Shown here: one piece after another, positions 3,190-47,629 of the stretch
Layout: every line of letters begins with the position of its first letter
How positions within the stretch are numbered: the first letter of the stretch is position 1
DNA from: an uncultured Coriobacteriales bacterium
GTDB lineage: Bacteria > Actinomycetota > Coriobacteriia > Coriobacteriales > QAMH01
Direction of reading: 5' to 3'
Assembly (NCBI GenBank): GCA_934646835.1
Contig: CAKUES010000001.1
Location: 42,090-106,089, forward strand
Length of the DNA stretch: 64,000 bases
The notes under the pieces: model-generated
The model's database searches: none
What the model saw: the letters and a program-made list of their open reading frames with translations, nothing else
What the model was told of the DNA's origin: nothing
Program-made: the position numbers and the translations under genes

Positions 3190-3329
3190 AAAAAGATGCC
3201 GAAGTGTTAAGGGTTTTGGCGAACACGCGAGTAGACGGCTGTTGAAGCTTGCAAAACCGCAGGTCACAGCGTTGCGGATTCTTGGCTACTCGATGCTTTC
3301 GGCTAACCCTTAACACTTCGGCATCTTTT
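3190..3329 (+). repeat. family A palindromic element, copy A1 (most diverged)
   Basis: Terminal inverted repeats aaaagatgccgaagtgttaagggtt / aacccttaacacttcggcatctttt. The core is gagtagacggc...gcaaaaccgcaggtcacagcgttgc...ggctactc, shared with the other 5 copies. Confidence 0.8.
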
Positions 3330-3402
3330 CACGACATATGTTTGCTGTTGAAGCGTTTTTGATCGCCGGTGCAGTCGCGAAGCCCCTTTTGAAGACACCA
3401 TC

Positions 3403-3432
3403 CAGATTGTCTGAACGAAAAATCGTTCAGAC
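3403..3432. repeat. family C hairpin, copy 1
   Basis: ttgtctgaacga-aaaa-tcgttcagaca; the same hairpin recurs at 3675 and 3737. Confidence 0.75.
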
Positions 3433-3534
3433 ATTTACGGCAATCCCCCAGATTCGCCAGAGCAAGTCGAATTCATTCGACTTTGGCGTGGAAGACACAC
3501 TGGGCTTCGTGTGAGCACTGGACGGTCGCAACGA

Positions 3535-3621
3535 CACGTAGTCGCGAGACGAAGTCCGCGACACCTCGCAGGGGCAGCCGGTCCGCAGCACCAGATGGCG
3601 CCGACTTCGTCAGGCGCCTAC
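3535..3621. repeat. family B REP-like pair (variant B' 3535-3564 in minus orientation, B 3587-3621 in plus orientation)
   Basis: B' is acgtaGTCGCGagacgaagtcCGCGACacc. B is gcaccagatGGCGCCgacttcgtcaGGCGCCtacg. The whole ~140-bp block is repeated directly at 5106-5194. Confidence 0.8.
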
Positions 3622-3674
3622 GGGAGGCTTGCGGCTCGACGCCGCTGGCGCAGCGCCCTTCGCGGGCACCTCCC

Positions 3675-3710
3675 CGGTTGTCTGAACGAAAAATCGTTCA
3701 GACAACCGGC
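3675..3710. repeat. family C hairpin, copy 2
   Basis: ccggttgtctgaacgaaaaatcgttcagacaaccgg, a perfect 16-bp stem. Confidence 0.75.
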
Positions 3711-3736
3711 TCAATCACCCGAATACACCCAAAACC

Positions 3737-3771
3737 CGAATTGTCTGAACGATTTTTCGTTCAGACAATTC
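3737..3771. repeat. family C hairpin, copy 3 (opposite loop orientation)
   Basis: gaattgtctgaacgatttttcgttcagacaattc. Confidence 0.75.
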
Positions 3772-3812
3772 GCGGCACCCCCCACATCCGTCCCAAAAGA
3801 GAAGCCACAAAC

Positions 3813-4931
3813 CTACAGGTCCCTCTCCTCTGCGATGCGTTCGAAGAAGTACTCTCTGAATCCCGGCAGGCAGAATTCGAGCAAGCCCTTTGACCGCTCT
3901 TGGATAACACCATGCTGCAACAGACGTTTCTTGTATCTCGAAACATGACCGCTTCTCTTATCTAATCTGGCGGCCAAATCTGTCTGCTTCGTCGCTCCTG
4001 AGTCTTGCGTCATTGCCCAAAGGAAGGATTTGTCGGCTTCGCTCAGCTCAAACCACACCGCTTCGTAGACTCTTTCATCCAGCTCCTTGCGCGCGATGCT
4101 TGCTGCGGCGTTAACGCTTAAGATATCCACGATGTTTGAATCCTCGGCCATGCGCCAGGTGCGATAACCCGCAAGCTGTAACATGAAGGGGAAGCCCCCG
4201 ATAGCGTTAATCGCGGCTTCAAGAGCATCGGGCTCGAAGCTTTTGCCGCCGTCGCGCATCGTCCTTACCAGCGCCTCTTCGACTTCGTAATCGCTCAATG
4301 CCTGCAGCTCGTATCGTGCGGCTCTTCGCAGGAATGAAGTTGATTTACCCGAGAGCAGCGACGTTACCGCATACGGAAGACCCGCCATGATGAGGGAGAC
4401 CTTCTTCCCCTCGTCGAGGAAGTGCTGGAAAGCGGCGACGAGTGTCACCATTTCCTCAATATCAGGATTGACCTCGTCAATCGTCACTAGCAGCCCAGTG
4501 TCGCATTCAGCCAAAGCATCCAGAATATCGTCCATCCTTGAACGCCAGTTCGACAGCTCGCAAGGCGAATCCTCCAGCTCAATCGAGATGAGCTCGGCAA
4601 TTCCTGCTCCTTTGATTTTGCGCGAGGGGTTGGTATCCACCAGATGTCGTGCCGCTCGTTGCGTTCTGATAAGGATCTCGTCGAGCATCCCCTCAACGCA
4701 GGTAACGCGAGCCGTAATCCACCCCGAAGACTCGGCTGCGTCGGCAAAATAGGACAGGAGAGCCGTCTTGCCCATACCGCGCGGGCCGACCAAAAGGCTG
4801 ATGATCGCTGGATCGTTGCCTGTGCCGGAAAGAGCTGTCTCCACATCGGCGATGATCCTTTCGCGTCCGGCTATGTGCAAGGGAACCTTGCCGACCACAG
4901 GGGTGAATGGATTGTCGAAATCTATTGCCAT
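3813..4931 (-). CDS. AAA-type ATPase (AAA_16/Arch_ATPase-like) with C-terminal winged-helix-like domain
   Basis: Walker A GPRGMGKT, Walker B-like LLVTIDEV, and a C-terminal segment KQTDLAARLDKRSGHVSRYKKRLLQHGVI. GAGGAGG lies upstream of the ATG. GC is visibly lower than in the neighbours. Confidence 0.75.
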   Translation of the reverse strand: MAIDFDNPFTPVVGKVPLHIAGRERIIADVETALSGTGNDPAIISLLVGPRGMGKTALLSYFADAAESSGWITARVTCVEGMLDEILIRTQRAARHLVDTNPSRKIKGAGIAELISIELEDSPCELSNWRSRMDDILDALAECDTGLLVTIDEVNPDIEEMVTLVAAFQHFLDEGKKVSLIMAGLPYAVTSLLSGKSTSFLRRAARYELQALSDYEVEEALVRTMRDGGKSFEPDALEAAINAIGGFPFMLQLAGYRTWRMAEDSNIVDILSVNAAASIARKELDERVYEAVWFELSEADKSFLWAMTQDSGATKQTDLAARLDKRSGHVSRYKKRLLQHGVIQERSKGLLEFCLPGFREYFFERIAEERDL

Positions 4932-5105
4932 GGCCGCCTCCTCTGTTGATTACTTTCAGCATAGAATAGCAACCTTCATTAAAGTTTGCACGCGTTAGCA
5001 AAGTTTGTAATCGTTAGCTTCAGGGTGTTGTACGTGCTCCAGCGCCCGTTCTGAGCATGCGGGTCCTACAGAGGCGCACCGTGAGCACGGGATAGTCGCT
5101 GCAAC

Positions 5106-5194
5106 ACGTAGTCGCGAGACGAAGTCCGCGATACCTCGCAGGGATCAGCCCGCCCGCTGCAACCCGATGGCGCCGACTTCGTCTGGCGCCTACG
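5106..5194. repeat. family B REP-like pair (B' 5106-5135, B 5156-5194)
   Basis: Direct repeat of the 3535-3621 block, roughly 85 percent identical by eye over ~140 bp. Confidence 0.8.
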
Positions 5195-5243
5195 CGGGGC
5201 CTGCGGCTCACCAGCGCTGGCGCGTGCCCTCCTCCTCCAAAAA

Positions 5244-5281
5244 GAGAGGCCGCTGAATGACTCGCCGTTCAGCGGCCTCTC
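5244..5281 (-). terminator. intrinsic terminator of the MoxR-ending operon
   Basis: gagaggccgctgaa / ttcagcggcctctc forms a 14-bp stem. On the minus strand it is followed by TTTTT (complement of 5239-5243), 36 nt after the MoxR stop. Confidence 0.65.
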
Positions 5282-5316
5282 GCAATCAACAGCCCGCAGC
5301 CGCAAAGCGTCGCAAG

Positions 5317-6288
5317 TTACTCCCCGTCGGCGCAGTACGGCACGGCAATGGAGCCGAGGATGCTGTTGACCACGTCTTGAGCGGTGCGTCCCTGAACCTT
5401 GGCCTCGTGGCTCAAGGTGATGCGGTGGCACAGGACACAGGGCGCGAGCGCTTTGACGTCGTCGGGCATGACGTAGCCGCGGCCACGGGACAGCGCGAAG
5501 GCGCGGCTCAGCGCCATGAGCGCAAGGCCGCCGCGCGTCGAGGAGCCCACCTGGATCTCCGGGTTGGAGCGCGTCGCGGTGAGGATTTCCACGATGTAGC
5601 GCGTGACGAGCTGGCTGACGTGGACTTGGGTGGCGATATCGCGCACAGCGAGCACGTCAGACGCGCTGGCCACCGGGCGCACGGCCTTCTTGGCGCTGTC
5701 GCCGAGCTCCAGCACGCGCATCTCCTGCTCGAAGTCCGGATAGCCCATGGACAGCTTGATGAGGAAGCGGTCGAGCTGAGCCTCGGGCAACGGGTAGGTG
5801 CCAAACTGCTCGATGGGGTTTTGCGTGGCGAGCACCATGAAGGGCTCGACGAGCTTGTGCGTGACGCTATCGACGGTGACCTGGCGCTCCTCCATCGCCT
5901 CGAGCAAGGCGGACTGCGTCTTGGCAGAGGCGCGGTTGATCTCGTCGGCCAAGACGAGGTTGCTCATCACGCCGCCAGGCCTGAACTCGAAATCGCGTGT
6001 CTTCTGGTTGAAGATCGAGAAGCCCGCAACGTCGGAGGGCATGACGTCGGGTGTGAACTGGATGCGGTTGAAGCCGCAGTCGACGGACTTGGCCAGCGTC
6101 GAGACAAGCGTGGTCTTGCCGGTGCCGGGCAAATCCTCGAGCAGGACATGGCCCCGGGCGATGAGCGAGAGCACCACAAGCTCGACAGCGCCGTGCTTGC
6201 CCTGGATGACGGTGTCGACGTTGCCGACGATGCGCTCGATGACGGCCCTCGCGGCCTCGACCTGGCTTTGACTGGGCATCTCTGCCAT
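5317..6288 (-). CDS. MoxR-family AAA+ ATPase
   Basis: LLEDLPGTGKT (Walker A) and VLADEINRASAKTQSALLEAMEERQVTVD (Walker B/sensor block), typical of MoxR. Confidence 0.9.
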   Translation of the reverse strand: MAEMPSQSQVEAARAVIERIVGNVDTVIQGKHGAVELVVLSLIARGHVLLEDLPGTGKTTLVSTLAKSVDCGFNRIQFTPDVMPSDVAGFSIFNQKTRDFEFRPGGVMSNLVLADEINRASAKTQSALLEAMEERQVTVDSVTHKLVEPFMVLATQNPIEQFGTYPLPEAQLDRFLIKLSMGYPDFEQEMRVLELGDSAKKAVRPVASASDVLAVRDIATQVHVSQLVTRYIVEILTATRSNPEIQVGSSTRGGLALMALSRAFALSRGRGYVMPDDVKALAPCVLCHRITLSHEAKVQGRTAQDVVNSILGSIAVPYCADGE

Positions 6289-6303
6289 GTTGTTATCCTC
6301 TCT

Positions 6304-7086
6304 CTAGAAAACCGGCGCGCACATGCGCATGGGCTCGTTGTGGCTGTCCATGAACTCGACGATCTTGACGCCCACGCCGTAGGCGGCCCTCATGTTCTTC
6401 TCCGTGATGATCCGCGTCGCTGGGCCAAACTGCATGGGCGCGTCGCGCTGCAGCAAGACGACGTTGGACTTGCACATGAAGGCGTGGTCGGGACTGTGCG
6501 TGGTCATGACGACGGCATAGCCCTTGGCGGCCAGGTCACGTACCTTGGAGATAACGCGCATGGCGTTGCCGTAGTCGAGCGCGGCGGTGGGCTCGTCGAG
6601 CACGAGCAGGCGAGGCTGCTGGCACAGGGCGCGGGCGATCATCACCAGCTGCAGCTCGCCGCCGGAGATGTCCGTGTAGACCTTGTCGCGCAGGTGGTAG
6701 ACGCCCATGTCGTTCATGGCGTTTTCTGCGATGTTGTAATCCTCCGCACTCGGCTGGCCGGCAAGTCCCATTTTGTTGACGCGGCCGAGCAACACGACGT
6801 CTTTAACCTGGTATGGAAAAGGCGGCGTGTGGGCCTGGCTCACGTAGGCCATGGTGTCTGCAAGGCGCTTGGGGCTCCATTTGGAGATATCGTCGCCGTC
6901 GACGGTGACCTTCCCGCCTTGGAGCGGGATTAAGCCGAGTATCGACTTGAACAGGGTCGACTTGCCTACGCCGTTGGGGCCGAGCATGCAGCAGACCTCG
7001 CCGCTCTCAACGCTGAAGTTCACGTAGCGCTGGACGGGCTTGCCCTTCTCGTAGCCGCAGGTCGCGTCTAAAACCTCGAGTTTCAT
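6304..7086 (-). CDS. ABC transporter ATP-binding protein (FepC/FecE/BtuD-like)
   Basis: Walker A GPNGVGKST, signature ISGGELQ, Walker B LLVLDEPTAALD. AAGGAAAGG lies before the ATG. Confidence 0.9.
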   Translation of the reverse strand: MKLEVLDATCGYEKGKPVQRYVNFSVESGEVCCMLGPNGVGKSTLFKSILGLIPLQGGKVTVDGDDISKWSPKRLADTMAYVSQAHTPPFPYQVKDVVLLGRVNKMGLAGQPSAEDYNIAENAMNDMGVYHLRDKVYTDISGGELQLVMIARALCQQPRLLVLDEPTAALDYGNAMRVISKVRDLAAKGYAVVMTTHSPDHAFMCKSNVVLLQRDAPMQFGPATRIITEKNMRAAYGVGVKIVEFMDSHNEPMRMCAPVF

Positions 7087-7098
7087 CGTTGCCTTTCC

Positions 7099-7839
7099 TT
7101 AGCAGCAGCCGCAAGAGCAGCTGGAGCCACTGTCCTTAGCGCCCGCGTCGACCGCAGCGGCTTTGGGCTCCGCGGGGCGAGCGGTGCTCTGGTCGTACTT
7201 CTCGCGCAGGAAGCCGCGGATGTTGTCCGGCATAACGTACTCGTCGTATGCGGGCTTCTCGTGCGTGAAGACGACCTCGAGGAGGCGCTTGACGATATAG
7301 GCCACGGGCGGGACCTCGTAGAGCTTGCCGTTGAAGTCGAACTGGCGGCAGAAGACATCGTAGCTGGACAGGGTGCGGCAGCAGTCGCATTCGTTCTCGA
7401 TGACCTCGGGACAGATGTCGACGCCGTTGACGCGCACGGTGGGGCTGCTCAAGAACTCGAAGCGGTCTGCCAGGTACTCGTTCTCGATCTCCACCTTGTT
7501 CATGACGATGTTGTAGCCGGCCATGTCCATGATGGGGCGCACCTGCTCGACGGCGGCAGCCACGCGCGCATCTGTACCCTGGCAACGGTCGCAAACGCTC
7601 TGGTCGAGGTAGAGGTAGTCGACGATGACGACCTCCTTGCGGCCGAGGTTGGGGTCGTCTTGCGTGGCATCGGGGTCACAGCAGCCGTTGGACTCGCCGC
7701 TGCCGCAGCAGCAGTCGGAGTCATCACCGCAGCAGCAGCTCTCCTTGGCCTCGGAGTGCTTCGAGCCACCACAGCAGCAGCTCTCCTCCTTCTCCTTCTT
7801 GGTCTCACCAGAGCAGCAGCAGTCGTTATTCTTCGTCAT
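7099..7839 (-). CDS. poly-cysteine protein with DUF2703-like (thioredoxin-like) core
   Basis: The N-terminus reads CCCSG..CCCGG..CCCGDDSDCCCGSGESNGCC and the C-terminus CSCGCC. The core VVIVDYLYLDQSVCDRCQGT...SSPTVRVNGVDI resembles DUF2703 as I recall it. The ATG at 7839 (GGGAGG 8 nt upstream) is preferred over the TTG at 7845. Confidence 0.7.
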   Translation of the reverse strand: MTKNNDCCCSGETKKEKEESCCCGGSKHSEAKESCCCGDDSDCCCGSGESNGCCDPDATQDDPNLGRKEVVIVDYLYLDQSVCDRCQGTDARVAAAVEQVRPIMDMAGYNIVMNKVEIENEYLADRFEFLSSPTVRVNGVDICPEVIENECDCCRTLSSYDVFCRQFDFNGKLYEVPPVAYIVKRLLEVVFTHEKPAYDEYVMPDNIRGFLREKYDQSTARPAEPKAAAVDAGAKDSGSSCSCGCC

Positions 7840-7939
7840 ACTCAATACCTCCCATTTTCAGACGGGCATGTGCCCGTCACCACAAACAGTGCAAGTAGCC
7901 AACAGGGCCAGCATGTTGCCAGGCCCTTGCAAGGCAGAA

Positions 7940-9286
7940 TCACAGCGTCAGATGTCGTATTCGATAGCCAAACAGCCCGAGCTCCTTGCGCGCTTTTCGA
8001 TAGAAGCTCTCGTACAGGTAATCCATGGCCTTGAGATCCTCATCAGCCACAGGCACATCGCCGTACTGCTGCGCAACGAACAAGGCCGTCAGGTGATCGA
8101 AGGAACCCGCCTCCTGCGCCCCCGCAAAGGGATAGATGCGCTCCCTGAACTTGTTGGCGTAGTCGACCGGAGTCATAGCATCTGGCTTGGCAAAGCCCAG
8201 CTTGGCAAAACGCGACAAGAAGAATCGATACAACGTGATGACGTAAGTCCCGTTGCCCTTGTTGCGCATGCGCTGCCAGCGGACCTTCCTAACCACAAAG
8301 CGAGGGAGCACGAGCAAGACCACGACCAGCACGAAGACGATCAGGATAAGAAGCGGCCAAGGAATGCTCGAGTTGAGCGCGACCTTCCGCGCACCTTCGA
8401 CAAGGTCGGCAAGGTCGATGTCCGAGTACTTGCCGGAGAGGTAGTTCTCCTTCTTCTGCGGCGCGCTTGTCCCGCTCTCGTCATGTTGCTCTGAGCTCTC
8501 GTCGATCTTCTTGTCAGTCGTCGTCTTGGGATCAAGGCTCTCGTCGACATTCGAGCTGGTCACGACGTTGTCCGTGTCGGGCGACAGCGAAACCACTCCC
8601 TTGACAGGCTGCTCCTCGTAAGCGAGGTAGATCGTCTGCAGCTTGATCGTCGCATGGGGCGGATTGAGCGGCATGACGATACCGATCACAATAACGGAGG
8701 CAACGAGGCACAAGGCGAGCGGCAAGCCGACGACAGAAGCCACAAGCTTTGCCGGCAGCTTCCCGCCTGCAGCAGCGGCGGGCTGAGCTCCAAACCTCAA
8801 AGCAAGCAGCGCCAAGGCCGCAACGGCGAAGACGAAAGTGCTGACGAGCATGTTGGCGGTGTACATCAGCTGGATGTAACTGCAGGCGAACAAGCCCAAG
8901 GCAAACAACGCGACGCAGCCGAGGTGCTTGCGTGAGCAAGCGAACACCACGGCGTTCACGATGCCGACAAGCGCGCAGAAGACGAAGAGGTTCTCCGGCA
9001 CGTCTTCAACGGGGTTGACCTGCGGGGAGACGGCAACCGCCGCAGCGCACGATGCGACAAGCAGCGCTGCGAATGCCGCGCGCGAGCCCCATCGCCAGGA
9101 GGGGCGTGCAGCCCCCACACCCAAAACCACCTGAGCGACAGAGCAGGCCGCAAGGTTGAGGGCAAGGTTGTGGTGGATAGCGTCGCTGACGTTGAAACCG
9201 CCTTGGACAATGAGTTCAAGCGAGCATGCAGCGACGACGCACAGCAGCAGCTCGAACCCAAGCAACAGCTTCGTACCCTTACTCAT
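7940..9286 (-). CDS. multi-pass membrane protein with DUF4129-like C-terminal domain
   Basis: About 7 hydrophobic helices, an acidic/Ser-rich linker, one further TM helix, then MTPVDYANKFRERIYPF...YLYESFYRKAR. This resembles the DUF4129 tail of transglutaminase-type partners of MoxR/DUF58. The ATG at 9286 overlaps the DUF58 stop (ATGAGTAA). Confidence 0.55.
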   Translation of the reverse strand: MSKGTKLLLGFELLLCVVAACSLELIVQGGFNVSDAIHHNLALNLAACSVAQVVLGVGAARPSWRWGSRAAFAALLVASCAAAVAVSPQVNPVEDVPENLFVFCALVGIVNAVVFACSRKHLGCVALFALGLFACSYIQLMYTANMLVSTFVFAVAALALLALRFGAQPAAAAGGKLPAKLVASVVGLPLALCLVASVIVIGIVMPLNPPHATIKLQTIYLAYEEQPVKGVVSLSPDTDNVVTSSNVDESLDPKTTTDKKIDESSEQHDESGTSAPQKKENYLSGKYSDIDLADLVEGARKVALNSSIPWPLLILIVFVLVVVLLVLPRFVVRKVRWQRMRNKGNGTYVITLYRFFLSRFAKLGFAKPDAMTPVDYANKFRERIYPFAGAQEAGSFDHLTALFVAQQYGDVPVADEDLKAMDYLYESFYRKARKELGLFGYRIRHLTL

Positions 9287-10577
9287 GAGTGCCGCCTCCC
9301 ACCATGTCGGCGACGTCACTCACCAGCAGGCAAACTGCACCGGCGGCATCGAGGTCGGCCATGAGGTTGCGGTTCTCCTTGATAAAGCGCATACGCTCAC
9401 TGTGCGGGGACACGAGGATGACGGTTACAGCGATATTGCGCGCGCACAGGCTGAGAATCGCCGCAACGAGCTTGGGAGTCAATGTACTCGTGCACAAAAC
9501 GGCGTTGTCGACGCCGGAGGAGATGCCACACTCGCTAAGCAACAGCCCCACCGCGTCTTGCTCCGACACGGCATCGGACAGCAGCGGCAGCTCGCCTACC
9601 AGCTCCCCGATAGAAGCGCTATCGGGGAGCTCCTCGTACTTGATCATGCGGCCCGTCTTCCCGGTAAAACACAACTCGGTCTCGAGCTTGCGGCTCTGCG
9701 AGAGCTTGAAGGAGGTGATTGCGGACTCGACCAGGACATCGCGCGCTTCCATGAGCAGTTCGTGGCTGAGCGCCAGTGCATGGAAGTCGATGATGACGGC
9801 GGTCTTGGTGTTCACATTGGTCTCGAACAGGCGCGTCTGCAGGTTCTCCGTGCGCGCGGAAAGCTTCCAATGAACGGACTTCATCGGGTCGCCGAACTCG
9901 TAATCGCGCACCCCGGCATAGTCGACGTCGTCGGAGATGACAGAGCGCACGGGCATGAGGCTCTTGCGCATGGCAAGCTGCGAGAACTCGAGGGCAGATG
10001 CCTCACAGGGAAGCGGCGTGGCCACGATCGACGCATGGTCCACGCAGGCGACCTCTACGTGCAGCAGGCCAAACGGGTCGAAGAGCAAGATACCCTTCAA
10101 GCCGATCTGATAGCTTCCGATATGCGCGCAAGCCACCGAGGCACTGATGCGGGCATCCTCGTTGTTGTCGATCGCGATAACGGCCTCCTCGCTTTGCTCG
10201 ACATCCCCATAGGGATTAGCGACGAATACCTGCGGCAGCGCCTTGAAGACGGGCAGGGGCGAGCGGTTACAGACCGCCAGCGGCAGCTTGACGGACTCGG
10301 TGCGCGTGCAGGACTCTTCCTCGAAGTCAGAGCGTACCAACAGTCCCTTCTTGACTGTGCACAGATACATCCAGCTTGTCGCAAGCAGCAACAAGTAGGT
10401 GAGCAGCGGGATATAGGCGATGGGATGGGTCACGAAGACTGCGGGAAGCGCGAGCACGACGAACACGACAACGCAGACAATGATCTGCCTGAACGCAAGC
10501 GCGCGAACGCGCTGCTCATAGGCGCCGGCAGCCTTCTTGGGATTGAGCTTATCCAAGATACGCAGCACGCCTACCAC
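9279..10577 (-). CDS. DUF58 domain protein (MoxR partner)
   Basis: Hallmark motif DYAGVRDYEFGDPMKSVHWKLSARTENLQTRLFE and two N-terminal TM helices. The start is GTG 10577 (overlapping the upstream TAG as GTGGTAG) or GTG 10568. The track's longer N-terminus overlaps the permease gene. Confidence 0.8.
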   Translation of the reverse strand: MVGVLRILDKLNPKKAAGAYEQRVRALAFRQIIVCVVVFVVLALPAVFVTHPIAYIPLLTYLLLLATSWMYLCTVKKGLLVRSDFEEESCTRTESVKLPLAVCNRSPLPVFKALPQVFVANPYGDVEQSEEAVIAIDNNEDARISASVACAHIGSYQIGLKGILLFDPFGLLHVEVACVDHASIVATPLPCEASALEFSQLAMRKSLMPVRSVISDDVDYAGVRDYEFGDPMKSVHWKLSARTENLQTRLFETNVNTKTAVIIDFHALALSHELLMEARDVLVESAITSFKLSQSRKLETELCFTGKTGRMIKYEELPDSASIGELVGELPLLSDAVSEQDAVGLLLSECGISSGVDNAVLCTSTLTPKLVAAILSLCARNIAVTVILVSPHSERMRFIKENRNLMADLDAAGAVCLLVSDVADMVGGGTHE

Positions 10578-11821
10578 CCCTTTCGGGAGAACGTGGTCGC
10601 CCACACGAAGAGCGGCAAGGTGACAGCGCCCGCAACCACGCCGATAGGCAGGCCAATGCCAGGGAAGGGAATGAGCACTGTAAGGTCGCGGCAGATGAGG
10701 AGCACGATTGTGCCGAGCAAAACATTGCCCCACAACTGGCGCCTGAACTCGCTGCCAAAGAGGTAGCGTGCGAGGAAGGGCACGACGAGCGCGAACGAGG
10801 AAGCGGACCCGACGAAGACCTGGGCCGTCAGGATCATGATGGAGCCGGCGATGATGGAGAGGACCCTGAGAGCCGCCGGGTGCCCACCCATGACGCGGAT
10901 CTCACCATCGCTGAAGGAGAGCAGGTTGAGGCGATAGCGCATGATCGCAACGGGCACGAAGGCCACCAAGACGGAGCCGATGAGCACAACGTAGGTGATC
11001 GGCTGGTAGTAGATGTCGAGTGCCTCCTGGTACTCGAAGAACTCGATCCAGATGTTGAGCGCGGACAGCTGGTCCATCATGTACTTGACCACCGCACCGA
11101 GGAAGGCGGACATGATCGTGCCGACGACGAGCATGTCGAAGACGCTGATGCTCGTCTTGCGCTTGGTGATGAGCTTGCTCAGCACGAAGACCGCAGCAAG
11201 CGTGACTATGCCGGCGGTGTATCCGTAGACAAAGCGCTGGCTGTGCATGTCGAACGAGATGGCCCCGTAAGTCGCAAAGACGAAGAGCAGGCCAACCTGC
11301 ACGCCATGAGTGACGCCAAGCAGCGACGGCGAGGCGATGGGGTTGCGGAAGACGACCTGGTACAACATGCCAGCGCAGGCAAGCAAAGCACCGCTCGCAA
11401 CTGTAGCGAGCGTTATGCCGGCGCGCTGGACGACCTGCGCATACAGCGGCGCCACATCGACCAGGCTGGTCTTCTCGTCAAAGAGACCCAGCCCAAAGAT
11501 ATTGGAGAGCTGCCAAAGCGACCAATTCCACAAGTTGGATGCGACGTCAATGGGATTATAGAAGCTCACATAACCAGAACCCGAGCCCGTGAGGCTGAAG
11601 CACATCGAGACAAGGGTCAGCGCGACGGCGATGCAGGCCATCACTGCGATCTTGAGTCGATAGACCTTGCGGTCGGCCTTGAGGTTGGCATCAGACTGCC
11701 CGCGGGTAATGTCGCCTGCACCCTCTGCAACACGCAGGGCGAAGGCATCGTCGCGGAGAAACTCCGGGAGCTGGTAGCCCTCCTTGAAACGCGGGGCACC
11801 TGCGACCTTATTTCCAAGCAT
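10571..11821 (-). CDS. FecCD-family ABC permease
   Basis: Polytopic protein with the FecCD-type block LNLLSFSDGEIRVMGGHPAALRV. The ATG at 11821 (MLGNKV...) overlaps the upstream gene end by 14 nt. Confidence 0.85.
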   Translation of the reverse strand: MLGNKVAGAPRFKEGYQLPEFLRDDAFALRVAEGAGDITRGQSDANLKADRKVYRLKIAVMACIAVALTLVSMCFSLTGSGSGYVSFYNPIDVASNLWNWSLWQLSNIFGLGLFDEKTSLVDVAPLYAQVVQRAGITLATVASGALLACAGMLYQVVFRNPIASPSLLGVTHGVQVGLLFVFATYGAISFDMHSQRFVYGYTAGIVTLAAVFVLSKLITKRKTSISVFDMLVVGTIMSAFLGAVVKYMMDQLSALNIWIEFFEYQEALDIYYQPITYVVLIGSVLVAFVPVAIMRYRLNLLSFSDGEIRVMGGHPAALRVLSIIAGSIMILTAQVFVGSASSFALVVPFLARYLFGSEFRRQLWGNVLLGTIVLLICRDLTVLIPFPGIGLPIGVVAGAVTLPLFVWATTFSRKGW

Positions 11822-13025
11822 GGGCACCTCCCCTTCCCCTGAAAGCGACGATGAAGAACACAATGCAGCCGATGAACGTGGCGATGAGGTTGAAACCCTG
11901 GTCCATGTCGATGTTGAGCTGGCTGCCGATAAACAAAACGACCATCACGAAGATTGAGCCGATGACAAGCGACATGGGCATGAGGTAGCGGAAGTTGGGA
12001 CCGACCAGCCGGCGCGCGACATGGGGGCTCACAAAACCGACGAAGGCGATGGGGCCACAGAAGCCGACCACGATGCCCGTCGCCGCCGTGCACAAGACGA
12101 TGGTGCCCGTGCGGAACCTGCCCACATCCATGCCCGAAGAGCGCGCGATGTCGTCGCTCAAGGAGAGCAGGTTGAGCCGCGTGCGCAGCACCATAAGACA
12201 TGCGAGCAAGATGACGAGCGGGATGAGGAAGACCAACAGGTCCCTGAAGGTGATGAACGCGGTGAAGGGGACGGCTTGGGCGTTTTCTACGAGGTCCGCT
12301 CGAACAGCATCGCCGGTCACCTCGAGGAAATAGCGGAAGGTGTTCGCCACCGTGGCCAAGACGAGCGTGAAGACCTGGCCCACGACGATGAGAACGACGT
12401 TTCCAAGGGCCCCGTTGCCCACAGCGCGCGAGACGAAGAGCGCCGTCGCGGCGACGATCAGGCCTCCTGCGATGGCGCAGATGGCGGCGCCGTAGACCGC
12501 CCAAGCAAACTCAAGTGGATTCATCCCCTGCAGGGAGTCCATAACCTGCGAGGCAGAGACCACGGAGGAACCCCAGATGTCCGGCATGAGGCACAGGTAG
12601 TACAGCGTCGAGCCAAAGAGACAGCCGCTGATGATGCCCAGCGTGGAAGGCGATGCAAGCGGGTTCTTGAAGGTACCCTGGTAGACGGCGCCGCACACGC
12701 CGAGCGCACCGCCGGCGACAAACGCGGCGATGTAGCGCATGACCGTGGCCTTCTGCATGCCGCCGGCTCCCGAGCCGCTCAAGACAGCAGCGGTGTCGGC
12801 GACGTTGGACCCCAATTGGTCGAGAAACTCCGCCATCGTGGACTTGTGGCCGATCTCCGTAAGAAGACCGGACGGCAAGACAATCGCGCCGGCCAAGATG
12901 GCAAGCGCGATCACGAGCAAGATCACGATGCGACGGGCCTTCGCAGAATCCTTGCCCAAGGCGGCGAGCTGCGGCTTGGGCGCCTCAACCTCTGTCTCTA
13001 TGTGCAGGCTGCTCTTGTGTTCCAT
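11808..13025 (-). CDS. FecCD-family ABC permease
   Basis: Polytopic protein with the block LNLLSLSDDIARSSGMDVGRFR. Its ATG overlaps the TAA of the binding-protein gene (TAATG). Confidence 0.85.
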   Translation of the reverse strand: MEHKSSLHIETEVEAPKPQLAALGKDSAKARRIVILLVIALAILAGAIVLPSGLLTEIGHKSTMAEFLDQLGSNVADTAAVLSGSGAGGMQKATVMRYIAAFVAGGALGVCGAVYQGTFKNPLASPSTLGIISGCLFGSTLYYLCLMPDIWGSSVVSASQVMDSLQGMNPLEFAWAVYGAAICAIAGGLIVAATALFVSRAVGNGALGNVVLIVVGQVFTLVLATVANTFRYFLEVTGDAVRADLVENAQAVPFTAFITFRDLLVFLIPLVILLACLMVLRTRLNLLSLSDDIARSSGMDVGRFRTGTIVLCTAATGIVVGFCGPIAFVGFVSPHVARRLVGPNFRYLMPMSLVIGSIFVMVVLFIGSQLNIDMDQGFNLIATFIGCIVFFIVAFRGRGGAHAWK

Positions 13026-38913: not shown

Positions 38914-39008
38914 CGCCAGGCGCTCCGCAATCGCAGCCTGAGCGCAACTAACTGCCGCTGCAGGCATCGGTTGCCTGCGGCGGTGGTTCGCTCTGTGTCA
39001 GAGAGGCG

Positions 39009-39557
39009 CTACTCACCCGGGAAGTAGGGGCACTGCCCGCGCAGGCACTGGGCATTGCCGCCACAGAAGGTGCAGGTCACGCGCTCAGGGCGCACCATGC
39101 GCACGTTGAAGTGCTCGTTGAGAAAATCAATCGCGTCGAGGGCAGCGGTATAGCTCGAGCGACTGCAGCAACGCGGCAGCTCGGCCTCGGCGATATGCCC
39201 TTGCACCGTCGCCGTTAGGCGCTGGCACTGCCCCCAGGGCTCGCGCGTCATGGGCGTCGCGCCGTTGATAACGCTGAGCGCCTGGCCCACGCCCACCGCC
39301 ACACCGCAGCAGCACCACGACTCGCACGAGCAACCGGGGACCTGCCCAGCTCGCGCGGCGTATTCCTTGAGGGCAGCGCCCTTGGTCATCGTGCCGCCGT
39401 TGATCTTGCCACCCGCATTGAAGAAGGCCGTGATGACGGCCGCACCCGCAGCCATATGGCGCATGGGGTCCTCGGCGCAGCAGCCCGCGCCAGCAAGCAG
39501 ACCCTCCATGACATCGATCGCATCGCACGAGCGATTGGTAATGCAGCTCTTGAACAT
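39009..39557 (-). CDS. Cys-rich protein, short paralog of 47723..48442 (possibly DUF5714-like)
   Basis: Shares GGKINGG, PGCSCESWCCCG..VGQALSVINGATPM, RCC..S..TAALDAIDFLNEHFNV and VTCTFCGGNAQCLRGQCPYFP with the long paralog. It lacks the Zn-ribbon N-terminus. Start at MFKSC (39557). Confidence 0.6.
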   Translation of the reverse strand: MFKSCITNRSCDAIDVMEGLLAGAGCCAEDPMRHMAAGAAVITAFFNAGGKINGGTMTKGAALKEYAARAGQVPGCSCESWCCCGVAVGVGQALSVINGATPMTREPWGQCQRLTATVQGHIAEAELPRCCSRSSYTAALDAIDFLNEHFNVRMVRPERVTCTFCGGNAQCLRGQCPYFPGE

Positions 39558-39667
39558 CTCTTCCTCTCTACGCGGACACCCGCGCACCCTCATCAAACGC
39601 AAAGACGCGCTCGCCAGCATTACAGCCAGCGAGCGCGCAAAAGCTCGAAACCTACTATCCCTTGCAG

Positions 39668-42673: not shown

Positions 42674-42675
42674 CT

Positions 42676-45267
42676 TTACTCCTCAACCTTCTCGATCTTC
42701 ACGCGGGCGAAACCGCCGTGGCGCGCGCTGTTGTTGGAGATGTGGTCGAAGACGCTCGGCAGGATCTCGTTGTTGTTGCCACCGCGCGGCTGGTGCTTGG
42801 CAAAGTCCTTGGCGGCGATGTGGCCGTATGCCCAGTGGCCCTGGCCGTAGCACTTGATGACGACACCCGGGCGCGTGCCCTCCCAACCCTTGGCATGGAC
42901 GGTGATGGAGCCCTGGACGGAGGTCACCTTGATGGTGTCGCCGTCCTTGAGGCCCAGCGCGGCCATGTCAACGGGGTTGATCTTCATGACGTCGTCCCAA
43001 GCCTCGTCGCCGGGGTCGACGTCCTTGAACTCCTGGTAGCCAACGCAGTTGGCGCTGCGGCCCTCGCGGTTGAGGCGGCTGCGGTGCTCCTCGAAGATAT
43101 AGGGGAACTCGCTCTCGTCGCCCAGGCGCACCGGCTCCTCGTAATGAGGAACGAAGGCGCGGCCGTCGCGAGCCTCGTAGCCCATCCACTCCATAACCTG
43201 GTCGGTGCCGACGCGGTACATGTCGGCCTTCTTCTCCAAGTCGCGCTTGAGGGTCTCGGAGTAGAACTCGAACTTGCCGGTCTCGGTGCCAAAGTTGCCC
43301 CAGTGCTTCTTGAAGCCCGCGGGCTTGGAGTTGAAGACGCCCTTTGAGGCGAAGTTGCGCCAGCTCTTGAGGCTGTCGCCCTGGCCGGCCTTCTCTGCGT
43401 CGCCGTTCCAGAAGGGCTCGGTGACGAGCTTGACGGCGATTTCTGCGAACTTGGCGGCGTCGGTGGGACGATTGCCGGTCTCGGGGTCGATGAAGGCCTG
43501 CGAGTAGTACTTGTAGATGTCGCCAAAGCCGCGCTCGTCGAGCTTCTTGGCGAGCTCCCAGGCGATCTCCGTCTCGTCGGTGAGGGTGTCCCACAGCGGC
43601 TTGATAATCGGCTGCTGAACGCTCATGTAACTGATGAGGCCCTGGTAGTTCTTCTGGCAGCCCCAGCGCTCGAAGAGGTGATGCTTGGCCGGAAGGACGA
43701 TGTCGGCGAACATCGCGGACTCGCTCACATGCGTGGTGATGCAGGCGTAGAAGGGAACGCTGGCCAGTGCCTTCTCCCAGCGCTGAGCGCCGGTGGCGGA
43801 GTAGGCGAAGTTGCACCAGCAGCTGATGAGCACCTTGGTGTCGTACCAGCCTGCATCCTCGACGTCGTGGTTGATGACGTCGGCGAGTCGGTTGGTGATG
43901 ACCATATCGTTGATCTTGCCGCCGTGCGCGCCGAGGAACTCCTTCTCGACGCGGCCGTCGATCTTGGGCTTCTTGGCGTTGGAGCGGGCGTTGCCGTTGC
44001 GCCAGCGATTGTGGTCGGGCAGGTGGCCGGCCGTCATGGACGCCGTGCGCATCGTGCCGCCCTCGTGCTCGGTGGAGCCGACGAGGCCGTTGAGGGCGTT
44101 AGCAGCCATGGCGCCGTAGACGCCGCGCGGCTGGTTGGAGACGCCGGGGCTCATCCAGGAGATGGAGCTGGCGCCGTATTTGCCAAACTGCGTCGCCACG
44201 TCGATGATCGTCTCCGCGGGGATGCCGGTGATCTCTGCGGCCCACTCGGGGGTCTTATCCTTGAGCTCGATGTTCCACCAGCGCACCAGGCCGTAGCCCT
44301 TGTTGTACTCGAACTTCTCCTCGTCGACCATCTCGCCGGCGACGAAGAGGTTGATGCGGGTGTTGGCGTCGTCGGAGATGTCGCGGTTCCAGACACCGGT
44401 CTTGAAATCGCCGACGAACTCCTTATTCCACAGGCCCTTGGTGAGGATGACGTGCGCCATGGCGCAGGCCAGCGCACCGTCGGTGCCGGGGATGATGGGG
44501 AGCCACTTGTCGGACTTGGCGGCGGTGGCGCTCAGGCGCGGGTCGACGACGTAGATCTTCGCGCCGTCCATGACGTCGCCCCACTTGGAGATGACAGAGG
44601 AGACCTGGCGGTTGGAGGCGATGGGGTCAGTCGACCACATGATGATGCACTTGGCGTTGGCAAGGTCGTAGTCGCGGTAGTTGAAGAAGCCCTCGGTGTA
44701 GTAGGCGCCCGCCTTCTCGACCTCTGCGCACAGCGTGGAGTGGCCGTAGTAGTTGGGCGTGCCAAAGAGCACGGGAAACTTGCTGTGGAGGACGTCGCCC
44801 ACAGCAGTGGAGCGGCCCTTCAGCATCATGAGCTTGTGGGTTTCCTTGTTCTCCTGCAGCTCCATGAGCTTGTCGGCGATCGTGCCAAGCGCCTCGTCCC
44901 AGGTAATGGGCACGAAGCCGGGGTCGATGTCGCGGCCCTTCTCAGGGTTGGTGCGCTTCATCGGCGTCTTGATGCGATCGGGATCGTAGAGCTGCTGAAT
45001 CGCCAGATGAGGACGGGGGCAGATGTTTCCGCCGGTGGCCTTGCAGTTCCAGTTGCCCTTGATGCGCAGGACGCGACCGCCCTGCGTGTAGACCTTAACC
45101 GGGCAGAAGGAAGTGCAGCCCTGGCAGGTGGACGCGGTCCACTTGCCTTTCTCGTTCTTCTTATGCGACTCGTCTGCAACGGCTGTGAAGGGGTTGGCAG
45201 CGCCGACACCTGCAGCCGCTAGTCCCAAGGCGCTAGCCTTGAGAAACGAGCGTCTATTCAGATTCAA
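42676..45267 (-). CDS. arrA: Tat-exported molybdopterin oxidoreductase, putative respiratory arsenate reductase large subunit (ArrA-type)
   Basis: Twin-arginine leader MNLNRRSFLKASALGLAAAGVGA. The blocks STCQGCTSFC, LQQLYDPDR, HSTLCAE and GQGHWAYGHIAA match my recollection of ArrA sequences. TTG start with AGGAAG 5 nt upstream. Confidence 0.8.
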   Translation of the reverse strand: MNLNRRSFLKASALGLAAAGVGAANPFTAVADESHKKNEKGKWTASTCQGCTSFCPVKVYTQGGRVLRIKGNWNCKATGGNICPRPHLAIQQLYDPDRIKTPMKRTNPEKGRDIDPGFVPITWDEALGTIADKLMELQENKETHKLMMLKGRSTAVGDVLHSKFPVLFGTPNYYGHSTLCAEVEKAGAYYTEGFFNYRDYDLANAKCIIMWSTDPIASNRQVSSVISKWGDVMDGAKIYVVDPRLSATAAKSDKWLPIIPGTDGALACAMAHVILTKGLWNKEFVGDFKTGVWNRDISDDANTRINLFVAGEMVDEEKFEYNKGYGLVRWWNIELKDKTPEWAAEITGIPAETIIDVATQFGKYGASSISWMSPGVSNQPRGVYGAMAANALNGLVGSTEHEGGTMRTASMTAGHLPDHNRWRNGNARSNAKKPKIDGRVEKEFLGAHGGKINDMVITNRLADVINHDVEDAGWYDTKVLISCWCNFAYSATGAQRWEKALASVPFYACITTHVSESAMFADIVLPAKHHLFERWGCQKNYQGLISYMSVQQPIIKPLWDTLTDETEIAWELAKKLDERGFGDIYKYYSQAFIDPETGNRPTDAAKFAEIAVKLVTEPFWNGDAEKAGQGDSLKSWRNFASKGVFNSKPAGFKKHWGNFGTETGKFEFYSETLKRDLEKKADMYRVGTDQVMEWMGYEARDGRAFVPHYEEPVRLGDESEFPYIFEEHRSRLNREGRSANCVGYQEFKDVDPGDEAWDDVMKINPVDMAALGLKDGDTIKVTSVQGSITVHAKGWEGTRPGVVIKCYGQGHWAYGHIAAKDFAKHQPRGGNNNEILPSVFDHISNNSARHGGFARVKIEKVEE

Positions 45268-45505: not shown

Positions 45506-45575
45506 TTCATGACTGGCGGAAGTCACCCCTGTGCTCACAGGGAATCGCCACCTCGTGAGAAAGAGTCCTACTCAA

Positions 45576-46373
45576 ATGAAAATCGCAAAGACCCTCGTCG
45601 GTGAGATCATCGGCACCTTCATGATGTGCTTTCTGGGCATCGGCGCTGTCGCGACCGCGACCCTGTACGGCGCACTCACCGGCCCTGGCCAGATCGGCCT
45701 CGTCTGGGGTATCGCAATCGCGCTGGGCATCTTCATGACCCGCAGCCTGTCTGACGCGCACTTCAACCCTGCCGTTACCCTGGCCATGTGCATCTCCGGC
45801 CGCAACAAGTGGTCCGAGCTGCCCGTCTACTTCATCGGCCAGTGCATCGGCGCCTTCCTCGGCGCTGGCGCCCTGTGGATCCTCTTCGCCGACTCCGTCG
45901 CCAAGAACCTGGCAAACGCCGGCCTGACCATGTCCACCAACTCCATCGGCTCTGCCGCCACCATCTGGGCCGAGGTCTTCCCCAACAGCTCCCAGGCCAT
46001 GATCTCCATGCAGGGTGCAATGTTCGCCGAGGGCTTCGCCGTCTTCATCCTGTGCCTGGTCATCCTCGTCGTGACCGACAAGAACAACGAGGGCGCCCCC
46101 ACCGCAGCACTCGCACCGCTGTTCATCGGCCTCACCGTCACCGTTCTGATCAACGTCGTCGGCCCTCTGACCGACGCTGGTCTCAACCCCGCCCGTGACC
46201 TCATGCCCCGCGTGGTCGCGATGATGGTTGGCTTCAAGACCGTTGCCTTTGGCACCAACGCCTTCAACGTCTGGATGGTCTACACCGTCGCGCCGTTCAT
46301 CGGCGGTGCTGTTGCAGCCCTGCTGTATCGCTTTGGCCTCACTCGCATGTTTGAGGACAAGAACGAGGCCTAA
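45576..46373 (+). CDS. MIP-family channel (aquaglyceroporin-like)
   Basis: SDAHFNPAVTLAM and DAGLNPARDLMPR. The start is taken at MKIAKTLVGEIIG (45576). Confidence 0.9.
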   Translation: MKIAKTLVGEIIGTFMMCFLGIGAVATATLYGALTGPGQIGLVWGIAIALGIFMTRSLSDAHFNPAVTLAMCISGRNKWSELPVYFIGQCIGAFLGAGALWILFADSVAKNLANAGLTMSTNSIGSAATIWAEVFPNSSQAMISMQGAMFAEGFAVFILCLVILVVTDKNNEGAPTAALAPLFIGLTVTVLINVVGPLTDAGLNPARDLMPRVVAMMVGFKTVAFGTNAFNVWMVYTVAPFIGGAVAALLYRFGLTRMFEDKNEA

Positions 46374-46411
46374 GCTTTGGATCGCATAGCCGCAGCCAGT
46401 GCGGCAATGTC

Positions 46412-46444
46412 GAACGCGCCCGTCGGTTCCCCGCGGGCGCGTTT
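46412..46444 (+). terminator. intrinsic terminator after the MIP gene
   Basis: aacgcgcccg-tcggttccccg-cgggcgcgtt followed by ttc. Confidence 0.5.
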
Positions 46445-46498
46445 TCAGTGCGCGGGCAATGTGCTTGAGAGGTGGACGGCGATCGGGGTCCCCAGCCC

Positions 46499-46678
46499 GC
46501 TGCAACCTATGGCGCCGACTCCGTCTGGCGCCTACGTGGTTCTGCGATCAACTGAAGCCGGCACGTCCTTGCCCCAGTCCCTCGCTGTTGCCCGACCTGC
46601 AGGCGGCACTGCGTCAGTACCGGAGGGTCCCGAAACCCACGTAGGCGTCAGACGGAGTCGGCGCCATCGGGTGGCAGC
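46499..46678. repeat. family B inverted pair (46499-46536 in plus orientation, 46640-46678 in minus orientation)
   Basis: gctgcaacctatGGCGCCgactccgtctGGCGCCtacg and its reverse complement 100 bp away, directly beside the IS200 element. Confidence 0.8.
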
Positions 46679-46699
46679 GGGCCGGAAGCCCCTAAAACG

Positions 46700-47450
46700 C
46701 GGGCTGAAATCAGCACCACCCCTCAAAGGGGTGGTTTGCTCTGGGCCTATAAGGCCAAGGTTTCCGGGCAGCGCCTCAAGGCGCTGCCCTTCACTTCGTT
46801 CAGGGCGCTACCGCCTTTGACTCTTGGGTGCCGCACAAAGCGGCTGCTGTCCCAGCTACTTCCTCTTGAACGGGTCCTCGTACTCCTTGACGCTCAACCG
46901 GTCCAGGGCGATGTCGTGCATCTCCTGCTCCCGGATGCACTTGACTATCGTGGCCTCGTTGAGGCCGACGGTGCTCACGTAGTACCCCTCTGCCCAGAAG
47001 TGCCTGTTGCCGAACTTGTACTTCAGGTTGGCGTGCCTGTCGAACATCATCAGCGCGCTCTTGCCCTTCAGATACCCGACGAAGGAGCTCACGCTGATCT
47101 TCGGGGGTATAGCCACAAGCATGTGGACGTGGTCGGGCATCAGGTGCCCCTCTATTATCTCGACGCCCTTGTACCTGCAGAGGTTCCTGAATATCTCCCC
47201 GAGGGACTCCCTGTACTGGTTGTAGATCACTTTTCGCCTATACTTCGGTGCGAACACGATGTGGTACTTGCACATCCACTTCGTGTGCGACAGGCTGTTC
47301 GCCTTGTTCGCCATATGGTGGCCGCCTCTCTATCCGTGGCCGATGCGTCCTGAACAAACGAATCGTAACCCCGGCCGGCGGCCGCCACCCACCCGGTTGG
47401 GCATAGCCTTCGACGCGCACCCGCATAGCGGGTGGTTTCTTGTGTCGCGC
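46700..47450 (-). mobile_element. IS200/IS605-family insertion sequence (IS200-type, tnpA only); boundaries approximate
   Basis: A single Y1 transposase gene flanked by same-orientation subterminal hairpins, each followed by gggtggttt (46716-46734 ccacccct-caa-aggggtgg; 47418-47434 cacccgc-ata-gcgggtg). The size of about 0.75 kb fits IS200. Confidence 0.65.
46856..47314 (-). CDS. tnpA: IS200/IS605-family Y1 (HUH) transposase TnpA
   Basis: KYHIVFAPKYRRKV, HUH motif PDHVHMLV, catalytic Tyr region FWAEGYYVSTVG; 152 aa. Confidence 0.92.
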   Translation of the reverse strand: MANKANSLSHTKWMCKYHIVFAPKYRRKVIYNQYRESLGEIFRNLCRYKGVEIIEGHLMPDHVHMLVAIPPKISVSSFVGYLKGKSALMMFDRHANLKYKFGNRHFWAEGYYVSTVGLNEATIVKCIREQEMHDIALDRLSVKEYEDPFKRK

Positions 47451-47479
47451 TACGCGCTCCACAGGCTCATGAGTCTACA

Positions 47480-47629
47480 AAATCAAAAAGTGCGCGAAGT
47501 GTTAAGGGTTTGAGCGGGTTATCGAGTAGCCGAAAATCGGCAACGCTGTGACCTGCGGTTTTGCGAGCGAAAATCGCCGTCTACTCGGCAACCCGCTCAA
47601 ACCCTTAACACTTCGCGCACTTTTTGTTC
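47480..47629 (-). repeat. family A palindromic element, copy A6 (core inverted)
   Basis: Core cgagtagccgaaaatcggcaacgctgtgacctgcggttttgcgagcgaaaatcgccgtctactcg, with the same TIRs. Confidence 0.85.

Follow-up and report, generated by a model that had tools for sequence, protein, structure and literature searches.

Long intergenic palindromes dispersed in a gut Coriobacteriales genome, and a bracketed nuclease-like gene as their candidate partner

The locus and its palindromes

The DNA analysed here, called the window throughout, is a 64-kb stretch of contig CAKUES010000001.1 from an uncultured Coriobacteriales bacterium (assembly GCA_934646835.1), and it contains six intergenic copies, c1 to c6, of a 149-nt palindrome that can extend up to 181 nt and that we call family A. 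Family A is best read as a selfish or recombinogenic dispersed repeat, previously undescribed, in an actinobacterial gut lineage. A 35-nt arm of the palindrome, searched with up to three mismatches, matches the window eight times where shuffles give 0.00, a 25-nt core matches six times against an expectation of 0, and the six copies align with a mean column identity of 81%. The coordinates below come from a covariance model built on family A (R1), and the strand of a copy is the orientation of its asymmetric core, which is plus in four copies and minus in two (c4 and c6). A first-pass annotation of this DNA had placed the copies at 3190, 23536, 34046, 36027, 38764 and 47480, and all six are confirmed with offsets of 1-4 nt.

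Copy c1 (3186-3334, +; 137.9 bits in the covariance model) has divergent arms, GATGCC and GGCATC, which are like those of another subfamily, and its right end CTTCGGCATCTTTTCACGAC resembles the subfamily of contig L222 (L numbers denote loci and contigs outside the window). Copy c2 (23535-23683, +; 169.6 bits) is part of a longer palindrome reaching 23519-23699, with 65-nt arms that are 86% complementary, and lies between the convergent genes ArsS (22373-23383, +) and an open reading frame (ORF) at 23820-24530 (-). The remaining copies are found both by the covariance model and by arm and core matches. Copy c3 (34048-34196, +) is preceded by a second type of repeat, family B, and a linker, and lies 567 nt downstream of a nuclease-like gene; c4 (36029-36178, -) lies 209 nt upstream of the same gene and 112 nt downstream of a MIP gene (36291-37085, -). 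Copy c5 (38766-38914, +) sits within a composite of family B, linker and family A, upstream of the 3' end of a DUF5714 gene (39009-39620, -). The composite and flank of c6 (47481-47629, -) are paralogous to the c5 locus, with the core inverted, and in the window strain an IS200 insertion separates c6 from family B.

The gene map upholds the intergenic placement of all six copies. The further statement that they lie mostly at 3' ends or between convergent genes fails for c3: in the sense orientation, this copy does not lie at a 3' end. The peptide QKVHEVLRVSA, flagged earlier as a spurious product, is a reading-frame artefact of open frames crossing the element. All copies are confined to 3-48 kb of the window, and the next 22 kb contain none. 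Positions 18648-48493 form an arsenic/selenium-related island with internal paralogy, whose genes include two ArrA-like molybdopterin oxidoreductases (19008-21425 and 42676-45267), ArsR, the radical-SAM protein ArsS, ArsM-like methyltransferases, two aquaglyceroporins, and DUF5714 and MbdU-like genes.

Structure of the element and covariation of its arms

Read from the outside inward, the element starts with CAAAAAG and CTTTTTG on either side of a long hairpin, continues with a conserved stem of about 28 bp (GTGCACGAAGTGTTAAGGGTTT) and a 12-nt variable segment per side, and then reaches the boxes GAGTAG and CTACTC. The apex of about 50 nt is weakly structured and holds the core TTGCAAAACCGCAGGTCAC(A/G)GCGTTGC. 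This anatomy differs in detail from that first described: the inner inverted pair is not the 8-bp gagtagcc/ggctactc but GAGTAG/CTACTC, of 6-7 bp, and the shared terminal repeats of about 35 bp do recur, as the eight arm matches show, but not in the divergent arms of c1. The conserved core is likewise present in all six copies, although that of c4 carries GGTCATAGCG. Arms of about 30-65 nt are 86-94% complementary, and the predicted folding energy of c2 is -120.9 kcal/mol (z = -13.7) for one strand and -124.1 (z = -12.9) for the other. RNAalifold gives a consensus structure with compensatory pairs.

Covariation can be seen in an alignment of 18 copies from three subfamilies, with the arm variants GTGTTAAGGG, GTAGGAAGGG/GTAGGCAGGG and GTGTGGCAGTAA. 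Here 92.9% of arm cells are paired compared with 82.9% in shuffles, and 19/36 arm pairs carry double-sided changes; pairing in slid controls reaches 46% at most. The two arms are thus kept complementary through many double substitutions, a pattern that would fit selection for a hairpin, a single protein recognising both arms, or templated correction alike. The variable segments, by comparison, are reassorted among copies; c2 and the L128 copy have the same left segment and different right segments, and the segments are paired in c6 and unpaired in c4 and in L120. What the subfamilies keep is the GTAG/CTAC boxes and a short asymmetric central motif, (A)AAC(C/G)GCNGGTCA(G/C)AGC, and the rest of the loop drifts.

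Distribution beyond the window

Ten family A loci can be listed, namely c1-c6, L118, L119, L120 and L128. Two of these, L118 (the orthologue of c3) and L119 (beside housekeeping genes), are contigs from a metagenome scan; L120 was reached through a protein search with the element peptide, which returned one protein; and L128, which lies at the end of a virus-like contig, is the one real copy among chance matches in a viral scan. The possibility that the element is absent elsewhere, raised in the first-pass annotation, can be set aside given these copies on other contigs. Model R1 also finds divergent members: the 7.5-kb contig L122 has three of them, L121 and L222-224 have two each, and Collinsella aerofaciens (L093) and a Coriobacteriaceae locus (L101) have one each. 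In three relatives with 79-87% identical ArsS, the same model finds zero elements over 62 kb. Family A would accordingly seem, from these sequences, to be part of a superfamily of the gut Coriobacteriia with lineage-specific subfamilies. Clusters of the window's proteins at 90% identity include NCBI MAG proteins labelled Coriobacteriaceae or Coriobacteriales, which sets aside Desulfobacterota, a host initially suggested by the ArrA and selenoprotein genes. The window's organism is also present in Hadza gut metagenomes.

The earlier view that the element could not be assigned to a known family still holds. There is no family A match in plasmids, and blastn against 5,426 E. coli genomes gives none either; the species-level genome collection, scanned with the 16-mer core only, gave no family A copies. 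An Rfam/Infernal scan, one of the checks proposed at the outset, gave 0 matches for the window at gathering thresholds, and a permissive Rfam search returned only sub-threshold generic hairpin models, the best being MIR1858 (64.9 bits vs 137). A literature string search on the arm and core found nothing relevant; the match of a Mycobacterium tuberculosis ncRv12659 probe to the searched string is probably coincidental. L118, a contig of a related strain, lacks the 965 bp of window positions 33086-34050, which hold the 5' end of a TetR gene, an FKBP gene, family B and 3 nt at the start of c3; one end point of the missing stretch coincides exactly with the left end of c3. Inside, the L118 copy combines c2-like and c4-like segments as a mosaic, and the contig may be a chimaeric assembly.

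A nuclease-like gene bracketed by two elements

Between c4 and c3 lies a 351-aa gene (34764-35819, -) whose product is predicted to have a C-terminal PD-(D/E)xK fold like that of Vsr, DUF559 and MTES_1575 proteins. A gene of this kind is bracketed by two elements in four settings: the window, L121 (81% identical homologue; elements at 1499-1647 and 3428-3576), L122 (69%; 4677-4826 and 6283-6431) and L222-224 (56%; 3688-3836 and 5126-5274). In each homologue the bracketing elements belong to the local subfamily. The neighbours of the bracketed gene differ among three contexts, being MIP and FKBP genes in the window, recR in L121 and L122, which have their flanking genes in common, and PNPOx and leuB in L222. 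The 9-kb L222 locus carries just two elements and both flank the gene, and short contigs with the gene (L123-125) break inside elements. By our own rough count of intergenic gaps, the chance of such bracketing is about 0.015 in the window, 0.04 in L222 and 0.1-0.2 in L121 and L122. Between L121 and L122 the flanks are 83-84% identical and the nuclease-like gene only 69%, and flanks that are more alike than the gene they enclose indicate that the module was exchanged. In L222 and L121 the two flanking copies form direct repeats, with an extra 14-nt left flank, TATACGAAGTTT, common to the L222 pair; in the window and L122 their cores point in opposite directions.

As for the protein itself, weak MTES_1575 and DUF559 matches recur in 36 and 30 of 43 homologues, and residues D250, E265, Q267 and H272, in the pattern D...ExQ...H, are invariant among homologues. 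The AlphaFold model is confident (mean pLDDT 89.5), and its best partial fold matches are TnsA, the DUF559 protein 3hrl (TM 0.70 on the target) and Vsr, none with E <0.03. Nothing matches the roughly 240 N-terminal residues, and the family is not in PADLOC; it is large and unannotated, with 3,972 clusters at 50% identity. An apparently split nuclease gene in L211 was traced to a scaffold gap and is not a mutation. The L121 module also contains a convergent DUF1648-like small gene (2848-3360); the homologous stretch of the window (34251-34764) has no long ORF, and L122 retains a remnant only. Two readings would fit the bracketed gene, that it encodes an enzyme acting on the palindromes or that it is a cassette integrating at solo elements.

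How the copies change

Comparisons between strains show how individual copies are altered. In the Hadza strain L208, c6 carries the arms GTGTCAAGGG/CCCTTGACAC where other strains have TTAAGGG/CCCTTAA, that is, a left-arm T>C change matched by A>G on the right, in a region that is otherwise near-identical. In the window, a four-base change gives c1 a left arm, GATGCC, that is complementary to its right arm GGCATC, and the left arm in L216/L220 reads GTGCAC. Such comparisons favour a fast mechanistic process as the source of arm complementarity. The c5 and c6 loci are paralogous, with a family B repeat, linker, family A copy and DUF5714-like gene, yet the core of c6 is flipped, as recombination between the two arms would produce. 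Copies therefore change by arm-to-arm templated correction, by inversion of the core between the arms and by exchange of segments between copies, and they are dispersed to unrelated intergenic sites. The paralogous c5 and c6 loci suggest that passive spread occurs as well.

Family B and other repeats nearby

Family B is REP-like (REP, repetitive extragenic palindrome), consisting of GTAG and, after it, the GC hairpin GTAGGCGCCAGACGAAGTCGGCGCC; its usual arrangement is an inverted doublet with a spacer of 70-230 nt. Its layout, GTAG-GCGCC-AGACGAAGTC-GGCGCC, has the REP feature of a short palindrome after GTAG. A repeat search of the window places it at 3571-3651, 5143-5223 and 21425-21510, and a doublet, an inverted pair with GTAG and the GGCGCC...GGCGCC hairpin, abuts c3 at 33837-34022. 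Further doublets abut c5 (38446-38735) and belong to the c6 composite (46485-46692), the latter abutting c6 directly in the Hadza-gut strains. The variant GTAGTCGCGAGACGAAGTCCGCGAC, at 3511-3573 and 5081-5143, has compensatory stem changes. A conserved linker of about 40 nt joins family B to family A in c3, c5, c6, L120 and L128. A 17.8-kb segment of the window (about 3622-21434), which carries a MoxR-type AAA ATPase, DUF58, ABC and FecCD transport genes, ArsR and an ArrA-like oxidoreductase, is absent from L216/L220, and the junction lies within family B (3571-3651 and 21425-21510). This indel looks like recombination between family B repeats, and both families coincide with strain-level rearrangements.

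Two other repeats can be noted in the window. A small hairpin repeat, TTGTCTGAACGAAAAATCGTTCAGACA, has three copies next to c1 (3377-3433, 3648-3704 and 3711-3767) and a relative in L119 at 40-135. At 56406-56575, between an ORF ending at 56320 and sbcC, are three tandem units of 56-58 nt that read GAGGCGAGCGAAGCGATGCCTC...GGGTTGCAACCC.

The central motif across Actinomycetota

The core contains a 16-mer, GCAAAACCGCAGGTCA (the motif is also written GCAAAACCGCAGGTCAGAG), which has at least 116 exact matches in the species-level genome collection. About 100 of the 116 matches listed are in Actinomycetota, including 23 in Coriobacteriia, and they are mostly intergenic. The motif has a sharp 5' edge and a weak 3' extension (G-A/G-G), and near-copies cluster locally: about 10 have no more than two mismatches, against 0.5 expected. 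Hairpins with unrelated arms have the motif at their centre at L077, L043, L096, L063, L047 and L094, in Acidimicrobiales, Embleya, Corynebacterium, Streptomyces and Amycolatopsis, and its offset in these hairpins is constant, the right distance being the left plus 3. A second palindrome in the window (53110-53216, -), with arms GCTGATTAA.GCGAG, likewise has the near-copy GCAAAACCGCTGGTCA at its centre (53163-53178). Some sites immediately follow tRNA 3' ends or stop codons, and the motif sometimes pairs with its own reverse complement to give a terminator-like hairpin. Example loci for the motif are L020, L034, L050, L061, L077, L043 and L096, together with positions 53163-53178 of the window.

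Across the phylum the motif has no orientation or 3'-end bias (23 divergent, 21 and 16 co-directional and 10 convergent settings, with crude gene calling). The sequence downstream of it is more structured than that upstream (-16.6 vs -14.0 kcal/mol, p = 0.001). A role as a 3' untranslated region or terminator-upstream RNA signal was considered and is weakened by the lack of orientation and 3'-end bias. The string GTCACAGCG is a half-site of the Mycobacterium regulator MtrA (PMC4285127), and it is present in the core of c1, c2 (23606-23618) and c6 and one base off in c3, c4 and c5. The match is to a single half-site, one that is missing from the phylum consensus, and may be taken as a lead only. 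The central motif is probably a host-factor site carried by the element.

Interpretation and comparison with known systems

We lean towards the reading that family A consists of lineage-specific intergenic palindromes, hairpin- or cruciform-forming and of the REPIN, ERIC and Correia kind, that have been dispersed by a trans-acting enzyme, an explanation we would put slightly on the favourable side of even. Such an enzyme would act on folded DNA, in the manner of REPs and the REP-associated tyrosine transposase (RAYT), rather than as a cut-and-paste transposase, and the best candidate would be the bracketed Vsr/DUF559-like nuclease gene of 351 aa. Any effect on transcription, as a bidirectional terminator or insulator, would be secondary. 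The more specific proposal, that the 351-aa protein is the cognate enzyme, a Vsr/DUF559-type PD-(D/E)xK nuclease with a new N-terminal domain, whose recognition of the folded element would lead to copying or recombination of that element, is put forward tentatively and may well turn out otherwise.

A close comparison can be made with the REP/REPIN-RAYT system or "REPtron", in which REPs are palindromes 20-50 nt long that follow a conserved tetranucleotide, in most cases GTAG (PMC8266576). Like REPs, the elements described here are intergenic hairpin palindromes with GTAG beside a hairpin, in the GAGTAG/CTACTC boxes and weak apical hairpin of family A and in the GTAG and GC hairpin of family B. 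Inverted doublets, mosaics with other repeats, a lack of target-site duplications, and one protein gene bracketed by repeats with many solo copies elsewhere are also common to both. Family A, however, is 149-181 nt long, and the bracketed gene is predicted to encode a PD-(D/E)xK protein of the Vsr/DUF559 type instead of a Y1 HUH transposase. The module also occurs in different contexts in each lineage, whereas RAYTs are usually vertically inherited. No tnpAREP (RAYT) gene was found beside the repeats, the sole Y1 gene of the window scoring as IS200.

Other known repeats can be compared as well. ERIC (IRU) and Correia (NEMIS) elements are imperfect palindromes of 100-155 bp, intergenic and often transcribed, with long arms, a conserved centre and copy numbers that differ sharply between related species; we know of no established mechanism for the spread of ERIC. 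Family A shares their size, intergenic position, long arms, conserved centre and contrast in copy number between relatives. It has no sequence similarity to ERIC, as judged indirectly from the E. coli genomes and not by aligning the 127-bp ERIC consensus itself, the TA duplications and IHF site of Correia elements were not seen in it, and its host phylum is Actinomycetota. Miniature inverted-repeat transposable elements (MITEs) are similar in size, terminal inverted repeats and multiple intergenic copies; for family A, in contrast, there is no target-site duplication, no parent insertion sequence (IS) with single arms was found, and the associated gene is flanked by two complete palindromes instead of half-elements. 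The attC sites of integrons, including VCRs, are imperfect palindromes of about 60-140 bp that act as folded single strands, bracket cassettes and are mutually similar within a genome. Their R''/R' sites (RYYYAAC/GTTRRRY) are not conserved in family A, in which only the right end of c3, GTTAGGC, fits, no IntI integrase was found among the annotated genes, and there is no array of single-gene cassettes, the spacing of family A being 2-20 kb.

Weighing the alternatives

The bracketed gene can also be explained without an enzyme of its own. The elements could be recombination or integration sites for gene cassettes, with the nuclease gene as cargo, for example a defence gene; a circle of the gene and one element would enter a solo element by site-specific or Campbell-type recombination to give element-gene-element. 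We consider this unlikely, though it accounts for several observations: the bracketing in four contexts, the direct repeats in L222 and L121 with the TATACGAAGTTT flank common to the L222 pair, the lower likeness of the gene than of its flanks in L121/L122, which suggests replacement, and the evidence from the 17.8-kb indel, with its junction in family B, that repeats do mediate rearrangement. It is countered by the opposite core orientation in the window and L122 (although core flipping occurs), by the failure to find an integrase in the window, by the single gene family so far seen as a cassette and by the lack of conserved attC core sites apart from the right end of c3. Descent from a known IS, as remnants or MITE derivatives, was suggested by the Y1_Tnp gene (tnpA; 46856-47314, -) only 166 bp from c6, within an insertion that spans about 46700-47475 and starts directly after ...CTTTTTGATTTTG in the window strain. 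Its product, however, is an IS200/IS605 TnpA (152.5 bits on NF033573) that falls well below the cut-off of the REP-associated transposase model (34.7 bits vs 80), and the IS200 has small subterminal hairpins of its own. The Hadza-gut strains L208/L209 lack it and retain c6 abutting family B, so the IS200 is a recent insertion, a neighbour of c6 and not the parent of the element. A RAYT/REPIN system built on this gene was rejected on the same two grounds, the score and the absence in sister strains. No other transposase, integrase or parent IS with family A ends was found in the window or the fetched loci. The proposed search for a cognate transposase with matching terminal repeats yielded an unexpected candidate, the flanked nuclease-like gene. 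An IS200 origin is refuted on these comparisons, and derivation from any known IS is barely credible. The IS200 transposase shares a 90%-identity cluster with Streptococcus IS200 transposases.

A second group of explanations places the function of the element in transcription or RNA. As a host cis module, family A would be a bidirectional terminator or insulator, or a set of binding sites for a conserved factor, spread passively by duplication and recombination, and its layout, with CAAAAAG and CTTTTTG enclosing the hairpin on both strands, would be expected to terminate transcription both ways. The core is sense-oriented downstream of a gene 3' end in 5/6 copies, the core 16-mer is Actinomycetota-wide with its sharp 5' edge and local near-copy clusters, the motif is centred in hairpins with unrelated arms, and the same position of c5 and c6 in paralogous flanks suggests passive duplication. 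Yet c6 lies beyond a canonical terminator hairpin at 47665-47703 and c2 beyond one at 23423-23455, and their place distal to the genes' own terminators makes a primary terminator role unlikely, contrary to the terminator module first suggested; a place just distal to terminators would instead show the pattern of a tolerated selfish insertion. (The terminator scan reads loops of up to 8 nt, which family A hairpin loops exceed.) The lack of orientation or 3'-end bias phylum-wide, the absence of the family from close relatives, which indicates that it is not an essential regulatory device, and the mosaic copies with often unpaired inner stems weigh in the same direction, and we judge the cis module improbable. 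That each copy is, or is part of, a structured small RNA gene or cis-regulatory RNA, an idea also raised in the first-pass annotation, is much less plausible still. The very stable fold, the RNAalifold consensus with compensatory pairs and the asymmetric, conserved core would suit such an RNA, but the two strands are equally able to fold, and across 11 copies the stability of the apical domain does not consistently favour either strand, which argues against a strand-specific RNA. In addition, the element matches no Rfam family, nothing promoter-like was found near the copies, c6 has its core turned round within its flanks, and the inner stems are not maintained.

Dispersal by a trans-acting enzyme has its own difficulties, and these should be set out together. 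The flanks of nine copies contain no direct repeats that could be a target-site duplication, the flanking bases instead continuing the palindrome, and no clean empty site was obtained, since synteny with relatives stops 15-27 nt from the ends of neighbouring genes. Insertion-site polymorphism between strains, which had been proposed as a check, was looked for and not seen: c1 (L216/L220), c2 (L216-221), c3 and c4 (L211-214) and c6 (L208/L209) are present in every strain examined, with no sign of current mobility. Of the original suggestion of a MITE- or REP-like mobile element, the dispersed palindromic intergenic repeat therefore stands, and a classical MITE is not supported, with no target-site duplication seen, no parent IS found in the window or the fetched loci and no presence/absence polymorphism seen among strains; family A is dispersed and not visibly active now. 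Templated correction of quasi-palindromes alone would give arm covariation without selection. For the nuclease-like protein, the link to the element is by association only, its Pfam matches are below the curated cut-offs (16.6 bits vs 38.2 and 12.9 vs 20.6), a full-length fold search of the PDB gave no significant match, and the family was not found near the core motif in 116 other actinobacterial loci. Some of the flanking may also be due to chance in element-dense contigs such as L122, with three elements in 7.5 kb. All of these points count against the dispersal reading, which remains the one we prefer.

Significance

To our knowledge, the spread of long palindromes like ERIC has gone unexplained for decades, and REPs are the sole case with a demonstrated enzyme, namely the RAYT transposase. 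A repeat family that comes with a single conserved, bracketed nuclease-like gene provides an enzyme candidate that can be tested directly. In the gut bacterium studied here, families A and B coincide with strain-level indels in the arsenic/selenium island, and they break metagenome assemblies. The core motif may mark the binding site of a phylum-wide factor. If the proposed enzyme is correct, family A and its partner would be a REPtron-like system of repeat and enzyme, based on a nuclease fold that had not before been linked to dispersed palindromic repeats, and the elements would be exploiting the central motif, with its conservation across Actinomycetota, as a host-factor site.

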